Part shown: piece after piece, positions 25,580 through 30,997 of the stretch
Position numbering within the stretch: position 1 is the stretch's first letter
Layout of the letters: each line of letters opens with the position of its first letter
Assembly (NCBI GenBank): GCA_031412515.1
Contig: JANODD010000147.1
Coordinates: forward strand, 5,110-69,109
Source of the DNA: Planctomycetia bacterium
GTDB taxonomy: Bacteria; Planctomycetota; Planctomycetia; Pirellulales; Pirellulaceae
Direction: 5' to 3'
Length of the DNA: 64,000 nt
The notes under the pieces: model-generated
What the model saw: the letters and a program-made list of their open reading frames with translations, nothing else
What the model was told of the DNA's origin: nothing
Databases searched by the model: none
Position numbers and translations under genes: made by a program

Positions 25580-25849
25580 ATGGCTCAAGCGATCGTTGAC
25601 CCGGAGCAATTACGCCAATTTGCTGCTTTATTGAAACGCTATAGCCAAACCGTACGCGACTCAACGACTACGCTCAACCAATCCTTGTCACGACTTTCTG
25701 AATCATGGCGTGACCAAGAGCACCGCAAATTCTCGGACGAATTCGAGGAACAGATTAAATTGGTTTCCAAACTGCTAGAAATGACCGATAAACACATTCC
25801 GTACTTGGTCAAAAAAGCAGAGATCATCGAGCAGTACCTACAACGCTAG
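25580..25849 (+). CDS. WXG100 family (EsxA/EsxB-like) protein, 89 aa
   Basis: MAQAIVDPEQLRQFA...SESWRDQEHRKF; helix-turn-helix hairpin of WXG100 size with central W-R-D. Confidence 0.85.
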   Translation: MAQAIVDPEQLRQFAALLKRYSQTVRDSTTTLNQSLSRLSESWRDQEHRKFSDEFEEQIKLVSKLLEMTDKHIPYLVKKAEIIEQYLQR

Positions 25850-25951
25850 GCCGAACATCAATCGAAGTTGTTGTAGCTGGTTTCGTGAGAAACCGGATAC
25901 TGCAAAAGTGGTCTGCTGGTTCGTCCGGCTTCTCACGAAACCAGCTACAAG

Positions 25952-26554
25952 ATGAGGGACTTAGTTATGTCGTCAGCCAATGTTCGATCTCTCGAGAGAT
26001 TAGAAGGCTTTTTAGACCATTGCCAAACAACTCGCGTGAAGTTATTGCAAGAACTGGAAAATCTCCAAATCGAATTGCAGCGGCTTACTTCGTGGTTAGA
26101 GAACGATGCAGCCCGCTACTGGGCCGGTGAACTTCAGCAAGCCCAGCGAGACTGGGTTGAATGCGAACAAGCGTTGTTGCGCTGCCGATCCGCCGTGCGA
26201 GCGAACGAACAGCGTCCGTGTACCGAACAACGCAAGCGTCTTGAACAGGCGACCGAACGACGAACTCTTTGCGAACACCAAGTTAAATTTATTCGCGACG
26301 CATCGTTGATGTGGCAACGTGAGAAGACGAAAGCCGAAGCAAAGATTTTTCGATGTCGCGATTTGGCGGATACGGATTTGACAGTTGCTATCCACAAATT
26401 GAAAGAACAACTTGGTCGACTCGAAGAGTATTCCACCATACGGTCTGGCGCGGTCACTCACATCGACGCCACGAAAGCAGATAAAGCCGTCGAAAGCGAT
26501 TCACAAAAAACGGATGAGTCAACTAACGATGCTGCACAGGATCCAACGCCATGA
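25952..26554 (+). CDS. Coiled-coil protein with W-A-G motif, T7SS-locus associated
   Basis: RYWAGELQQ, long amphipathic helices, ATGA overlap with the next gene. Confidence 0.7.
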   Translation: MRDLVMSSANVRSLERLEGFLDHCQTTRVKLLQELENLQIELQRLTSWLENDAARYWAGELQQAQRDWVECEQALLRCRSAVRANEQRPCTEQRKRLEQATERRTLCEHQVKFIRDASLMWQREKTKAEAKIFRCRDLADTDLTVAIHKLKEQLGRLEEYSTIRSGAVTHIDATKADKAVESDSQKTDESTNDAAQDPTP

Positions 26555-26793
26555 GACGCATTAGCCACGACATGTCCGGCATCTCCCAACGACTGAATCA
26601 TATTAAAGAGGCATTCAGTGAGGAAGTTGGCGAGGTATCCGAAGTTTGGTTGGACGCTAAAGGTCGCGTGTTCCTTCAGCAACATGTAGCTGCGATCCAG
26701 CCGACAATCGGCCAGTTGATTGGCGCCATCCATGAAGCGACGGAGTTGTTTGAAAACATTGCGAAGAAATTACGAGATCCGAAGAACAGTTAA
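26551..26793 (+). CDS. WXG100-like small helical protein, 80 aa
   Basis: VSEVWLDAKGRVF with central Trp; size and position between WXG100 and FtsK genes. Confidence 0.65.
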   Translation: MRRISHDMSGISQRLNHIKEAFSEEVGEVSEVWLDAKGRVFLQQHVAAIQPTIGQLIGAIHEATELFENIAKKLRDPKNS

Positions 26794-26851
26794 CGGTCGA
26801 TGAAAGAAATTTTTTAATGGGAATTGCCCCTGAATAAGTTATGCAAAGCAA

Positions 26852-27050
26852 GTGAGCCGACAGCGCTAGCTGCGGAGTGGTAAGTGAGCCGACAGCGCTA
26901 GCTGCGGGTTTCGAAGGAGTGGACTATCGCTGACCAAAGTTGTCCAATTTACAATTTCGACCGCGAGTCGTTTGCCATTAGCCGGTTGAAATTTGTGTTA
27001 CGTCGCTGACTTCGAAACCCGCGGCTAGCGTCCTAGCGCCGACGGCTCAC
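26852..27050. repeat. REP-like family A inverted pair (two + copies, one - copy)
   Basis: GTGAGCCGACAGCGCTAGCTGCGG at 26852 and 26884; ACTTCGAAACCCGCGGCTAGCG-TC-CTAGCGCCGACGGCTCAC at 27009-27050. Confidence 0.85.
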
Positions 27051-27109
27051 TATACTACGATACTAATACAAAAAAATTGAGACAATTGTTCGACACTAAG
27101 CAGGCCACC

Positions 27110-30100
27110 ATGATCGACTCCAATCCAAGATTACTGCCCCGGCAACGACTCGAAAAACTTGTTCACGGTCTGCGAGAACGACTCAGCAGCGGCGCGGAGA
27201 AAATTTCGGCTGAGGTGGACCAGATCGCCGCGACGATGAAAGAGGCTGAGGCACTGCAGCAAGAGCAAATTGCTCAGTTGCAAGGCGAACGAAGTGCGAA
27301 GGAAAAGGCAACGATTAACGATTGGGATGAAACGCTTCACTCTCGATGGGATGACGCTGAGCTTCGATCTTTCAAAGCTGTTTTCGAAACGTCGGCCCGT
27401 GAAGGACAACTCCGCCAGGATACTCGCAAACGCTCGGATCAAGTCAATATCGATGCCAAAAAACGCATCGCTGAAATTGAGCAGAGATTTCTTCGCGCCA
27501 AAGATGTACCGATCCGAAGACTGCACGAATACCGAGCCAACAATTTGAATTTCATGGGCGAACTGATCGAGGTAGAGCGTGCCGCCGATGCCGCGTTGGC
27601 TCAACATAGCCTGCGGGCTCCCAATGTTCAACCGCCTGAATTGCAGTATGAAAAACCGCAGTCCGCTGACGATTGCTTGCGAATGTTGCGAGCAGCCATC
27701 GCAGACGCCAAAGTCCATTTCGATCGCCTGACCAACCATCCATTGATTCGTTTTTTCGAGTCGATCTGGTTGTGGTTGATCGCCGCGGCTTTTTTTGTAT
27801 CCGTCACGGTTGCATTGGGACTCAGCGGTGTCGTCGTCTGGTTGTTTGCAGTACTGGGTGGCGCAGTGGCCACTGTAGCACTCATGTTGATCAGTCTGCT
27901 GGGCATTCGTCCTTGGCTCAAACGTATTGCCGCCGCCGAATATCCGCGTGTCAAACAGCAGGTGGCTCACGGTCGCGCTCTCCATGACCTCGGTGCCGAG
28001 TTGGCGACAAATGAAAACGACGCGGAACTGAAACGACTCGCAATGAAACGTGACACGCGATACAAACAAACTGAAAAGTGGCGGATTTTAGAATTAAATG
28101 AGCTGTCGCGGCGATTAGCCGAAGATCTTGAAAAGCTGCGACTGCATGCAGAACAGCAAAAGCAGGCCGCCAGTCACCAGCTAACGACCGACCGCGATTC
28201 CACCACTCAGCGTTTCACACTGCAGCTTGAACAACTCTCGCAACAAGCCCTTAGCCGCGAACAAAATCTAACCCAGGCTGGCGTCCAACGTCGCAACGAT
28301 TTTTTAGCAGCGATGGATCGCTTGAATCGCGGGGGAGTACTGCGTTTACGCACAGCAACTCAAAAGGCGATCAAAACGGTTGAACGCAGTCGCCGATGGT
28401 GCAGCGTTCACTTTCCAGACTGGCAATCTTGCCAGTGGTCGGCTGATTCGTGGCCAGAGCAACTTGATGAACCCATGTTGCCCCTCGGGAACTTGCCGCT
28501 TGATTCCCTTCTTCCTGAAAACCTTCAGGCTGATGCAGGGAATGACTTGGATGCCCCCGTCTATTTCGCACCGCTGACCGATGGCTACTTAACGATCACA
28601 GGCGATCCTAAACTGCCTATTGTTCAGCAGACGGTACGAAACCTGATACTTCGTTCGTTGACAACTTTGCCAGCCGGTCGAACTCAAGTGTGTGTCATCG
28701 ATCCGCAAGGTCTGGGGCGAGATTACGGTTGGCTGATGCACTTGGGTGACTACGACCCACAACTGGTATCGCATCGTGTTTGGACTCAACCTGGCCATAT
28801 TGCCAAACAAGTCCAAATGCTTGCGCAGGCCGCCGAGGATTTTATTCAACAATCGCTCCGCAATCAGTATCGCAATATCGTCGAATACAATCGCGACGCA
28901 GGTGCACTGGCAGAACCCTTCCGGTTGCTCGTCTGGACATCGATGCCCGTTGGCTTGGACGATCAGTCTTGGAAAGCCCTGCAGAGCCTGCTAGACACGG
29001 GCACTCGCTGCGGCATCATTCCAATTTTCTTGATCGATCCGGCCGCACCTTGGCCATCGGCAGATCACAAGAACATGGTCATGCGTCGCGGGTTGCATTA
29101 CACGGTCAGCGAAGATGGCAAATCGCTTCAACCCATGTCCGAATCAAAAGCGAAGTTGCCCATTCGTCCCATGCCATTGCCGGACGAAGCCCATGCACAA
29201 ACGGTGATTCATGAAGTCGGTCGCCGTGCACTTTTGGCAAGCCGAATCGAAGTACCACTGGACCGTATCGTTCCAGCACCTGATCAGCGCTGGCAGGCAG
29301 ATAGTTCCAAGTTCCTTGAGATTCCCATCGGGCAAAGCGGTGTTGGTCGCACGCACTCTTTGAAACTCGGCGTTGGGACAGCTCAGCATGCGATCATCGC
29401 CGGTAAAACTGGCTCCGGCAAATCTTCGATGTTGCACGCGATTATCTCCAGCGCCGTACTCAAGTATTCGCCTGAGAACCTCCGGCTGGTGCTACTCGAC
29501 TTCAAGAAAGGGGTCGAGTTCCAAGTCTACTCCGACAATCAATTGCCGCATGCGGACATCATCGGCATCGAGAGTCATCGTGAATTCGGCTTGAGTGCAC
29601 TTGAGTATGTTGACGGATGTATGCAGCGCCGGGGCGAAATGTTTCGCAGTCGTGGGGTGCAGGATATCGCTAGTTGGAATGCGGCGGTACCTGATCAGCA
29701 TCTGCCACGAATGTTGATTGTCGTCGACGAATTTCAAGAGCTTTTTGTTGAAGATGATAAACTCTCCAATCAAGTCAGCCTGATTTTAGATCGCATCGTC
29801 CGTCAAGGCCGATCATTCGGCGTCCACGCAATCCTAAGCAGTCAAACACTAGCCGGTGCGTATTCGTTGCCTCGGACAACGCTTGGTCAAATGGGCGTGC
29901 GTATTGCGCTGCAGTGCGACGCTTCGGATGCTCAAATTGTTTTCGCTGAAGACAATCCTGCCGCAGCAAGACTGAAGAATCCAGGCCAAGCGATCTATAA
30001 CGACGCGGGCGGGCGCATTGAAGGAAACCAACCGATGCAGATCGGTTGGCTGAGCAAGTCCCAGCAGCAAAAGTGGTTGGCTGAGATCGGCAACGGATAC

Positions 30101-30997
30101 ATCAACGCTGACCCAACCACTAATATTCTAGGTCGTTCGGTAGTTTACGATGGCAATCGCGCCGCAACGTGGACTGAGGAAAATGCAAATCGAGCCATCA
30201 ATGAAGCTCGACGCGACATTAATCCAGACGCCATTTGGTGCGTCGTCGGTGAGAGCGTTGCCATTAGTCCTGCGATTACATTCCCATTGACCAATCAAGC
30301 CGGACGCAATGTCTTGATCGTTGGTGGCGTAGATGCCATCGCGGCTTCAGTGATGAGTGTCATCACTGCCTCTTTTGTGCGTCATGCCAAGTCTAATCAT
30401 CGCGCGCAAGTCTTCATCGCTCAAGCCGCCAAGCCGACGGATGCAAGAGCACTGCAAATGCCCGAGCGTTTGAAGCAGTTGCCGTGTGACCTGAAGATTG
30501 CAAACGTCCGCGGCGTAGATAGCATGTTAAAAGAACTGCACCAAGTGCTTAAGCAACGCATCGACCAACCCGATGAAGCTTCGACGCAAGTGCCCGTCCT
30601 GTTGAATCTGGTCCAGCTCGGTCGATTGCGAACCCTTCGGCGTGAAGATGAATATAGCATGGGCAGTTTCGGCGAAGCGGAATTGACTCCTGACAAGCAC
30701 TTAGAAGAAATACTTCGCGATGGTCCAAGCCACAACATCCATGTGGTTGTCTGGGCGGAGAACTATTCAACCGTCAACCGCTGGCTATCGCGGACCGCAA
30801 TGCGTGAGATCGAGATTCGCTTACTAATGCAAATGGGGGCCAATGATTCGACCAACTTAATTGAATCGGTTGCCGCCAGTCGACTGGGCGAGAACGTAAT
30901 GCTCGTTCACGATGAAGCTACGGGGCAAGATCAGGGTTTCCGACCCTTTGATTTTGACACCCTAGGTGAACTCAGCCAGTGGGCATTAAATGGTTAA
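27110..30997 (+). CDS. FtsK/SpoIIIE-family ATPase, EssC/EccC-like type VII secretion coupling protein
   Basis: N-terminal coiled coil, two TM helices, three RecA-like modules; only the middle one has Walker A AGKTGSGKS and Walker B IVVDEFQE. ATG at 27110 preferred over TTG 27077. Confidence 0.85.
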   Translation: MIDSNPRLLPRQRLEKLVHGLRERLSSGAEKISAEVDQIAATMKEAEALQQEQIAQLQGERSAKEKATINDWDETLHSRWDDAELRSFKAVFETSAREGQLRQDTRKRSDQVNIDAKKRIAEIEQRFLRAKDVPIRRLHEYRANNLNFMGELIEVERAADAALAQHSLRAPNVQPPELQYEKPQSADDCLRMLRAAIADAKVHFDRLTNHPLIRFFESIWLWLIAAAFFVSVTVALGLSGVVVWLFAVLGGAVATVALMLISLLGIRPWLKRIAAAEYPRVKQQVAHGRALHDLGAELATNENDAELKRLAMKRDTRYKQTEKWRILELNELSRRLAEDLEKLRLHAEQQKQAASHQLTTDRDSTTQRFTLQLEQLSQQALSREQNLTQAGVQRRNDFLAAMDRLNRGGVLRLRTATQKAIKTVERSRRWCSVHFPDWQSCQWSADSWPEQLDEPMLPLGNLPLDSLLPENLQADAGNDLDAPVYFAPLTDGYLTITGDPKLPIVQQTVRNLILRSLTTLPAGRTQVCVIDPQGLGRDYGWLMHLGDYDPQLVSHRVWTQPGHIAKQVQMLAQAAEDFIQQSLRNQYRNIVEYNRDAGALAEPFRLLVWTSMPVGLDDQSWKALQSLLDTGTRCGIIPIFLIDPAAPWPSADHKNMVMRRGLHYTVSEDGKSLQPMSESKAKLPIRPMPLPDEAHAQTVIHEVGRRALLASRIEVPLDRIVPAPDQRWQADSSKFLEIPIGQSGVGRTHSLKLGVGTAQHAIIAGKTGSGKSSMLHAIISSAVLKYSPENLRLVLLDFKKGVEFQVYSDNQLPHADIIGIESHREFGLSALEYVDGCMQRRGEMFRSRGVQDIASWNAAVPDQHLPRMLIVVDEFQELFVEDDKLSNQVSLILDRIVRQGRSFGVHAILSSQTLAGAYSLPRTTLGQMGVRIALQCDASDAQIVFAEDNPAAARLKNPGQAIYNDAGGRIEGNQPMQIGWLSKSQQQKWLAEIGNGYINADPTTNILGRSVVYDGNRAATWTEENANRAINEARRDINPDAIWCVVGESVAISPAITFPLTNQAGRNVLIVGGVDAIAASVMSVITASFVRHAKSNHRAQVFIAQAAKPTDARALQMPERLKQLPCDLKIANVRGVDSMLKELHQVLKQRIDQPDEASTQVPVLLNLVQLGRLRTLRREDEYSMGSFGEAELTPDKHLEEILRDGPSHNIHVVVWAENYSTVNRWLSRTAMREIEIRLLMQMGANDSTNLIESVAASRLGENVMLVHDEATGQDQGFRPFDFDTLGELSQWALNG

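Follow-up and report, generated by a model that had tools for sequence, protein, structure and literature searches.

All type VII secretion system (T7SS) variants have two parts in common, a protein of the WXG100 family and an ATPase of the EssC/EccC type (PMC11217815). A 2024 survey of these variants (T7SSa/b and T7SSc-j) is confined to Bacillota and Actinomycetota (PMC11217815). The locus described here contains both parts and comes from a diderm planctomycete of the family Pirellulaceae. It lies in a 64,000-nucleotide (nt) stretch of contig JANODD010000147.1 (GenBank assembly GCA_031412515.1), called the window throughout, and encodes three small proteins (sp1, sp2, and sp3) followed by a large FtsK-family ATPase. 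An earlier note on this DNA had called it a minimal T7SS-like locus, and that homology call was right.

The class to which the locus belongs was described computationally in 2012. Footnote 6 of Table 1 in Zhang, de Souza, Anantharaman, Iyer, and Aravind (2012, Biol Direct 7:18; PMC3482391) lists a 'solo WXG' protein together with a YueA-like ATPase. This ATPase has three HerA/FtsK domains, 'only the middle one active', and the lineages listed include planctomycetes and verrucomicrobia (PMC3482391). The earlier note had itself mentioned bioinformatic reports of WXG100 genes in other phyla. The present locus resembles the class in having a stand-alone WXG100 protein without a toxin fusion, three ATPase modules, and Walker A and B motifs in the middle module only, and it occurs in the same lineages. 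The activity of the middle module alone was derived here from a module alignment, independently of the 2012 work. The 2012 description consists of one sentence and mentions neither sp2, sp3, the anchor of two transmembrane (TM) helices, nor the fixed four-gene order, all of which were found here.

Two further groups of relatives are known. In Helicobacter pylori, HP0062 forms a homodimeric bundle of four helices with a WRD bend. Its gene clusters with an FtsK/SpoIIIE gene, and a role as a chaperone or adaptor has been proposed for it (PMC3397514). TM-less relatives of the ATPase are found in Type III-A CoCoNuT and TerY-P loci, where they accompany two WXG100 proteins, one of them without a true WxG, and a coiled-coil protein fused to a D-ExK nuclease (Bell et al. 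2024; PMC11090510). The same authors noted a stand-alone form of the EssC-like operon, citing Anantharaman et al. 2012 (PMC11090510). More generally, WXG100 genes beside an FtsK/SpoIIIE gene have been noted in a few Gram-negative species, with unconfirmed function (PMC10765036, citing Sutcliffe 2011 and Unnikrishnan 2017). A literature search brought up no experiments on WXG100 or EssC-like genes of planctomycetes or verrucomicrobia.

Against this background, the locus is a stand-alone, membrane-anchored member of the class that combines a solo WXG protein with a three-module, middle-active YueA/EssC-like ATPase. In addition, its four genes form an operon that has been inherited as a unit across Planctomycetota, is present in Verrucomicrobiota, and is related to the HP0062/HP0066 locus of H. 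pylori.

The small proteins

The WXG100 identity of sp1 is well supported. It matches the Pfam WXG100 family (PF06013) with 38.1 bits against a gathering cut-off of 27.3, and with 37.2 bits in a genome-wide scan in which it is the only match; no second WXG100 gene is present in the genome. The protein is 89 amino acids (aa) long and consists of the WXG100 domain alone, with no toxin fusion. Orthologues of sp1 are already labelled 'WXG100 family type VII secretion target' at NCBI and 'YukE' at JGI. The bend motif is W-R/Q-D with an invariant Asp instead of Gly, so that sp1 lacks a W-x-G in the strict sense. The residues that are invariant in 24 orthologues comprise W43, D45, E47, and F51 and, in the C-terminal tail, L76, K79, A80, Y86, and L87. 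Further evidence comes from a profile search of the PDB. The sp1 family profile aligned end-to-end with HP0062 (3FX7/2GTS; E 4e-12), including the sWRD..KF stretch, and ranked HP0062 ahead of Bacillus EsxB and Staphylococcus aureus EsxA. In other words, HP0062 is the best solved relative of sp1. The two share the W-R-D bend and the KF that follows it, and both hosts are diderm. Judged by its sequence, sp1 is a bona fide WXG100 protein.

A probable, more divergent relative is sp3. The sp3 of the window scores 13.1 bits against Pfam WXG100, which is under the cut-off, and PF06013 is matched by 8 of 56 sp3 orthologues. The sp3 family profile finds S. aureus EsxA (2vs0) with an E of 2.4e-5, and hhalign aligns sp3 with sp1 (E 6e-5) at a common W-x-D...F motif, of which W33 and D35 are invariant in the 56 orthologues. 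The C-terminus of sp3 reads LQDPD in the Aureliella/Pirellula-type clade and ...ReC elsewhere.

The remaining small protein, sp2, was modelled by AlphaFold as a long hairpin with a predicted local distance difference test (pLDDT) score of 88. Helices at residues 11-81 and 91-182 (~70 and ~90 residues) are joined by a turn at 82-90, and the hairpin as a whole is roughly twofold longer than the WXG100 type. The conserved positions are W48, W57, and Y160. In the W57-A-G motif, only the W is kept among orthologues. This Trp sits in the middle of helix 1 in the AlphaFold model, away from the turn, and sp2 is therefore without a WXG motif in the structural sense. No consistent Pfam match was obtained in any of 65 orthologues, and none of them carries a nuclease domain in Pfam. 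The profile search found no sequence relative in the PDB and returned only spurious matches to helices of the major histocompatibility complex. Foldseek returned only generic long hairpins (chemoreceptors, SMC, and BAR domains), every one with an E >1e-3. The N-terminal helix of sp2 weakly resembles helix 1 of sp1, a likeness limited to that helix, and the genome contains no second gene of the sp2 family. A WXG100 identity for sp2 was rejected because it has no family match, no PDB relative, helices that are too long, and a Trp that lies mid-helix.

The earlier note had read all three small proteins as WXG100-type hairpins with central W-R-D, W-A-G, and W-L-D motifs. This holds for sp1 and probably, in divergent form, for sp3, but not for sp2. 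All three motifs are present, and the W and D are invariant in sp1 and sp3, but the W-A-G of sp2 is neither conserved nor placed at a turn. Likewise, the Pfam models recovered sp1 and the FtsK_SpoIIIE domain of the ATPase, but left sp3 under the cut-off and sp2 without a match. The sp2 model does form a hairpin, but its length is unlike that of WXG100 proteins.

One orthologue of sp2 (locus L039, 5238-6230; G412:C11) is 330 aa long and ends in an Imm33-like domain (PF24719; 42.6 bits, cut-off 27). The Imm33 family comprises immunity proteins of polymorphic toxin systems. The fusion, a single case, hints at cargo carried by the sp2 tail or at contact between the cassette and conflict systems.

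The three-module ATPase

FtsK_SpoIIIE (aa 739-925) is the single Pfam domain above threshold in the ATPase. The best match among curated models is TIGR03924, EccCa (120.8 bits, cut-off 509.15), and TIGR03928 scores 79.7 bits (cut-off 778.4). A sequence search of the PDB likewise gave an EccC as the best relative, that of Thermomonospora curvata (4nh0; E 5e-30; 107 bits over the whole protein and 55 bits for the best domain), and the best sequence match of module 2 is EccC D1. An AlphaFold model of aa 440-1306 (pLDDT 83) contains three alpha/beta domains. In a Foldseek search with this model, the best match was again the three-domain EccC 4nh0 (E 6e-28, 963 columns), followed by D2-D3 structures of EccC/EssC and then by single FtsK motors.

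How do the three modules relate to one another? In hhalign comparisons, module 3 matched module 2 (probability 97%, E 5e-11, 219 columns) and module 1 matched module 3 (probability 82%, E 1e-5); the motif columns of module 1 read IDPxGLG. Modules 1 and 3 are thus homologous, and the P-loop lysine is absent from both. In 41 aligned orthologues, the Walker A motif GKTGSGKS/T is invariant and the Walker B motif DEFQE nearly so, in module 2 only. Module 2 is therefore the only module predicted from the alignment to be catalytically competent.

A hydrophobic two-TM hairpin at aa ~223-281 is conserved in 40 of the 41 orthologues. Poorly conserved helical regions lie on either side of it, ~220 aa long on the N-terminal and ~150 aa on the C-terminal side, and both have weak coiled-coil-type Pfam matches only. 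The earlier note had proposed a membrane FtsK ATPase with three modules. The TM hairpin, the hhalign comparisons, and the AlphaFold model bear this out, with the qualification that only the middle module appears competent. One planctomycete orthologue (locus L069, 1643-5593) shows no hydrophobic stretch within its N-terminal 470 aa (KD19 value at most 0.93); it may be an anchor-less variant or have a mis-called start. A genuine FtsK is encoded elsewhere in the genome, on contig C85 (212 bits), and the ATPase is therefore not taken to be the chromosome translocase.

The locus shares with the canonical T7SS a WXG100 protein, a membrane-bound multi-domain EccC/EssC ATPase with a two-TM anchor, and predicted modules that fit EccC D1-D3. 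It differs from it in several respects. The accessory parts that were searched for genome-wide, namely EccB (PF05108), YukC/EssB (PF10140), and YukD (PF08817), went unmatched in the genome, whose completeness by marker genes is 100%; models for EccD, EccE, EssA, and EsaA were not run. No other T7SS part was seen near the cassette in the window, and LXG, PE/PPE, and toxin substrates are lacking. The statement of the earlier note that accessory T7SS genes and LXG toxin or immunity genes are missing nearby stands for the window. An invariant Asp stands in place of the Gly of WxG, one active module is flanked by two dead ones, and long helical regions take the place of FHA domains. Furthermore, the host has an ordinary outer membrane, whereas the cassette encodes no outer-membrane component. 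A candidate LXG substrate was rejected: the sole match in the genome was sub-threshold (20 bits) and fell in the coiled-coil region of an MCE-like protein. The protein concerned (G000:C158:23342-24478; L133 3342-4478) is 378 aa long and has an N-terminal TM segment, an MCE/MlaD-like region, and a long helical tail.

The resemblance to H. pylori extends to the ATPase. A 485-aa FtsK-like open reading frame (ORF) of H. pylori shares 32% identity with module 2 (150 bits, E 2.5e-39), and is closer to the ATPase than the T. curvata EccC, the sole EccC alignment examined. In a tree of modules 2 and 3, the H. pylori ATPase is nevertheless very distant from that of the cassette, on a branch of length about 10. 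The gene order at the HP0062-orthologue locus (L134, 8422-14242; CP122955.1) is a 187-aa gene, HP0062, a 490-aa gene, WHH, SUKH, a 115-aa gene, and the FtsK-like ORFs. The locus thus carries a WHH toxin-domain gene, a SUKH immunity gene, and a 490-aa protein that the cassette lacks, and no homologue of sp2 or sp3 was detectable in it. The N-terminus of the 490-aa protein looks like a helix of the WXG type. The FtsK-like region of the examined strain is broken into ORFs of 247, 88, and 485 aa, has no gene call, and is a possible pseudogene.

The CoCoNuT/TerY-P operons also have a three-module ATPase with a central active module and a long N-terminal helical or coiled-coil region, together with two WXG100-type proteins and a coiled-coil protein. 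In those operons, however, the ATPase has no TM segment and the coiled-coil protein is fused to D-ExK, whereas the ATPase described here has a TM hairpin and sp2 has no nuclease. Those operons lie between the VWA genes of an McrBC-type system, whereas the cassette has no VWA/TerY gene, no kinase-phosphatase pair, and no McrBC-like linkage.

The cassette across genomes and in the window

Full-length relatives of the ATPase form well over 100 protein clusters, and the source names given are Pirellulaceae or other planctomycetes. An orthologue was found in 33 of 41 relatives of the host, including 23 of the 24 sampled genomes of its genus. Across the phylum the distribution is patchy (58 of 401 sampled Planctomycetota genomes), and 10 of 301 Verrucomicrobiota genomes carry an orthologue. 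A scan with the sp1 motif W[RQ]DQE[HQN]x[KR]F found at least 586 loci, among them loci of Pirellulaceae, Planctomycetaceae, Thermoguttaceae, Gemmataceae, and Haloferula; the isolate Haloferula sp. BvORR071 has the complete cassette.

The four genes usually stay together. The full order sp1-sp2-sp3-ATPase is present in 42 of the 59 loci with enough downstream sequence, and the median gaps in these 42 cassettes are 21 nt between sp1 and sp2, -4 nt between sp2 and sp3, and 25 nt between sp3 and the ATPase gene. This recurrence of one gene order in dozens of genomes is far beyond chance. A second arrangement, an overlapping sp1-sp2 pair alone, is found in 15 loci of the Pirellula type. In the complete genome of Pirellulaceae bacterium SH467 (CP197412.1), the pair (L081, 7001-7745) adjoins an HU/IHF-like gene and lies 2.8 Mb from the ATPase gene (L132, 4617-8573), which has no small gene beside it. 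A search of these two loci did not detect sp3.

All four genes are under purifying selection. Because synonymous divergence (dS) has reached saturation even in the comparison with the closest relative, only nonsynonymous divergence (dN) can be compared; dN is 0.005 for sp1, 0.046 for sp3, 0.048 for the ATPase gene, and 0.111 for sp2, and low values beside a saturated dS indicate purifying selection. The most constrained gene is sp1, roughly tenfold beyond the ATPase gene.

Is the cassette mobile? Zhang et al. called the class mobile, whereas the cassette is single-copy in this genome, present in nearly all of the genus, and strongly conserved. The observations point both ways: flanking genes vary between the genomes that carry it and its distribution in the phylum is patchy, versus its single copy and its near-universal presence in the genus. 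The base of the ATPase tree of modules 2 and 3 is unresolved, and no direction of transfer between Verrucomicrobiota and Planctomycetota can be inferred from it. In that tree, the Aureliella/Pirellula-type clade, which includes the window, is set apart from other planctomycete orthologues by a very long internal branch (2.2 changes per column).

Within the window, the cassette is a self-contained unit of ~5.4 kb (table below). The four ORFs of the earlier note are confirmed by the ORF listing and lie on the plus strand. The sp2 and sp3 ORFs share 4 nt. The starts of sp2 (M6) and of the ATPase were set by orthologue alignment, and the ATPase N-terminus from the probable start reads MIDSNPRLLP.

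Features of the cassette (positions in the window; probable starts, module activity, and domain limits are predictions)
Feature	Position	Strand	Size or residues	Description
sp1	25580-25849	+	89 aa	WXG100-family protein, W43-R-D45 at the hairpin, conserved C-terminal tail
sp2	25952-26554	+	200 aa	long two-helix hairpin, variable low-complexity tail; likely start M6 at 25967
sp3	26551-26793	+	80 aa	divergent, N-terminally short WXG100-like protein, W33-L-D35
Palindromic REP/MITE-like repeat	26794-27076	no strand		between sp3 and the ATPase gene; outside the conserved cassette
ATPase	27077-30997	+	1306 aa	EssC/EccC/YueA-like, FtsK-family; probable start ATG 27110
Two-TM hairpin of ATPase	27743-27919	+	aa ~223-281	hydrophobic block in 40/41 orthologues
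ATPase module 1	28544-29251	+	aa ~490-725	degenerate, P-loop-like; Walker A lysine absent
ATPase module 2	29252-30076	+	aa 726-1000	sole catalytically competent module (predicted)
Walker A GKTGSGKS	29402-29425	+		in ATPase module 2
Walker B DEFQE	within 29720-29740	+		in ATPase module 2
ATPase module 3	30077-30994	+	aa 1001-1306	degenerate, FtsK-like; Walker A lost (LLVGxxEEAxxG)

The insert between sp3 and the ATPase gene resembles a repetitive extragenic palindrome or miniature inverted-repeat transposable element (REP/MITE). It is 283 nt long and contains two direct 26-nt copies and inverted arms of 19-21 nt, and its RNA would fold into a hairpin of -94.6 kcal/mol (z -6.35). At least 63 matches to it are present elsewhere in the genome. 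It is missing from L044, a relative whose ATPase is 95% identical and in which the gap between sp3 and the ATPase gene is 28 nt. The insert might uncouple expression of the ATPase from that of the small genes. A scan of the locus for promoters and terminators gave nothing above shuffled expectation.

The neighbours of the cassette are genes for resistance-nodulation-division (RND) efflux upstream on the opposite strand and, convergent from downstream, genes for a CHAT protease, a Ser/Thr kinase, and a giant protein. A functional linkage to any of them was rejected because none accompanies the cassette in 10 related loci, and their adjacency is therefore regarded as coincidental. The kinase belongs to another operon and is absent within 6-8 kb of the cassette in all 10 related loci, so that it is no partner of the TerY-P type. 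When neighbours were clustered without annotation, no flanking family was conserved across the 10 comparison loci. In the window, no integrase or transposase lies next to the cassette, no relaxase, integrase, or other conjugation gene lies near it, and the cassette and the genes at its sides include none of the toxin, immunity, nuclease, VWA, or McrBC-like kinds. A gene of ~590 aa is found divergently upstream of the cassette in four carriers of the same genus (L014, 14439-16187; L015, 14251-16011; L016, 2198-3970; L017, 13633-15435) and is absent from the window and from L013.

Possible activities of the cassette

What does the cassette do? The earlier note had offered three alternatives for a reduced system, namely substrates that halt in the periplasm, passage of the outer membrane by an unknown route, and a function other than secretion, and the sequence by itself does not discriminate between them. 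The favoured reading is that it encodes an ATP-driven exporter that moves dimers of helical hairpins across the inner membrane only, a proposal to which we give about even credence. The enzyme would be anchored in the cytoplasmic membrane by its two-TM hairpin, presumably as a hexamer like other motors of the FtsK family, and ATP would be turned over in module 2 alone. Modules 1 and 3 may provide scaffold and substrate-docking surfaces, after the example of the signal-binding D3 of EccC. The clients would be pre-folded hairpin dimers, either an sp1 homodimer, as for HP0062, or an sp1-sp3 heterodimer, and sp2 could be a longer hairpin client or an adaptor. Recognition would occur through the conserved C-terminal tails, and the clients would be moved across, or inserted into, the inner membrane. 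Their end point would be the periplasm, with no outer-membrane step encoded. No toxin cargo is encoded either, and the exported hairpins would therefore themselves be the functional product. No N-terminal signal peptide is recognisable in the sequences of sp1, sp2, or sp3.

A number of points weigh against export. To our knowledge, every characterised T7SS requires further membrane proteins, and EccB, YukC/EssB, and YukD are absent here despite a complete genome; a hexamer of the ATPase would contribute only 12 TM helices. The scores of the ATPase are far under the cut-offs of the curated EccC/EssC models. In the Pirellula clade, sp1 and sp2 remain coupled to each other yet lie 2.8 Mb from the ATPase gene, and the extreme constraint on sp1 would be no less expected of a structural partner inside the cell than of a product that is exported. 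Furthermore, relatives without a TM segment in CoCoNuT/TerY-P loci (PMC11090510), together with the orthologue at L069, suggest that membrane translocation is perhaps not the core activity of these ATPases. Secretion has been shown for no member of the class (PMC10765036).

Several of the same observations favour a machine that secretes nothing, the main rival to export, which we take seriously but consider on the unlikely side. In such a machine, the ATPase would act on the hairpin proteins from the cytoplasmic side of the membrane, either as a switch or as a motor that assembles or remodels them. It would, for example, build or dismantle a helical-bundle scaffold or signalling complex, sp1, sp2, and sp3 would never cross the membrane, and the TM hairpin would serve only for localisation. 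Such a role would account for the accessory channel proteins that were not found, for the TM-less relatives in other operon contexts and the one such orthologue here, for an sp1-sp2 pair that survives apart from the ATPase, and for the constraint on sp1. The sp2 hairpin could pack on the helical regions that flank the TM hairpin of the ATPase, and the chaperone or adaptor role suggested for HP0062 points in the same direction (PMC3397514). On the other side, wherever they were tested, WXG100 proteins paired with EssC/EccC are secretion substrates (PMC11217815; PMC10765036), the membrane anchor is kept in all but one of the aligned orthologues, and the fold matches the secretion ATPases EccC/EssC before it matches FtsK.

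An alternative that appears unlikely is a mobile module of defence or antagonism, which would export or activate effectors encoded elsewhere or answer phage infection. The name 'mobile versions of T7SS' given by Zhang et al. (PMC3482391), the relatives embedded in TerY-P and Type III-A CoCoNuT defence loci, the WHH nuclease-toxin domain and SUKH immunity gene at the HP0062 locus, the Imm33-like fusion of one sp2 orthologue, and the variable flanks all fit this picture. However, no toxin or immunity gene, and none of the nuclease, VWA, or McrBC-like kinds, is part of the cassette or adjoins it in the window, the comparison loci share no flanking family, and the genome holds no credible LXG protein, no second WXG100 protein, and no second member of the sp2 family. 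A single copy that is kept throughout nearly the whole genus under strong purifying selection is a housekeeping-like pattern. A defence identity based on PADLOC was rejected as well: the matches of the ATPase (SspH, 78 bits; mad8, 65 bits) cover the generic P-loop module only and score below EccCa (121). A role for the ATPase as an additional DNA translocase, which would pump DNA in segregation or conjugation like FtsK/SpoIIIE or TraB, with the small proteins as unrelated accessory factors, is in our view barely credible. FtsK_SpoIIIE is indeed its only above-threshold Pfam domain, and FtsK motor domains fit its single modules well structurally, but a genuine FtsK is encoded elsewhere, the best sequence and fold matches are to EccC/EssC over all three modules, and two of the three modules are catalytically dead. 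In addition, the ATPase gene is counted here as always coupled to a WXG100 gene, and conjugation genes are missing nearby.

The locus establishes no new principle and is an ordinary representative of a class known from computational work since 2012. T7SSs are seen as systems of Gram-positive bacteria and mycobacteria, and many Planctomycetota and some Verrucomicrobiota keep a stripped-down relative of them as a set of four genes in fixed order. A bolder version of export, which we hold to be quite improbable, is that the cassette is a housekeeping, inner-membrane-only 'half' T7SS of Planctomycetes-Verrucomicrobia-Chlamydiae (PVC) bacteria. It would deliver sp1/sp3 bundles and the 10-nm sp2 into the unusually large periplasm of these cells, where they would have a structural role in the envelope or its invaginations rather than act as toxins. 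If true, this would be the first case in which a T7SS-type exporter serves a cell-biological role in a classical diderm, and an EssC-like hexamer with a two-TM anchor alone would suffice for translocation. The question posed by the locus is whether an EssC-like ATPase with nothing more than a TM hairpin can move folded helical bundles, and what use such bundles have in a cell with two membranes. Because the cassette is small and self-contained and occurs in cultured isolates, namely Aureliella helgolandensis, Pirellulaceae bacterium SH467 (split cassette), and Haloferula sp. BvORR071, this question is experimentally approachable.

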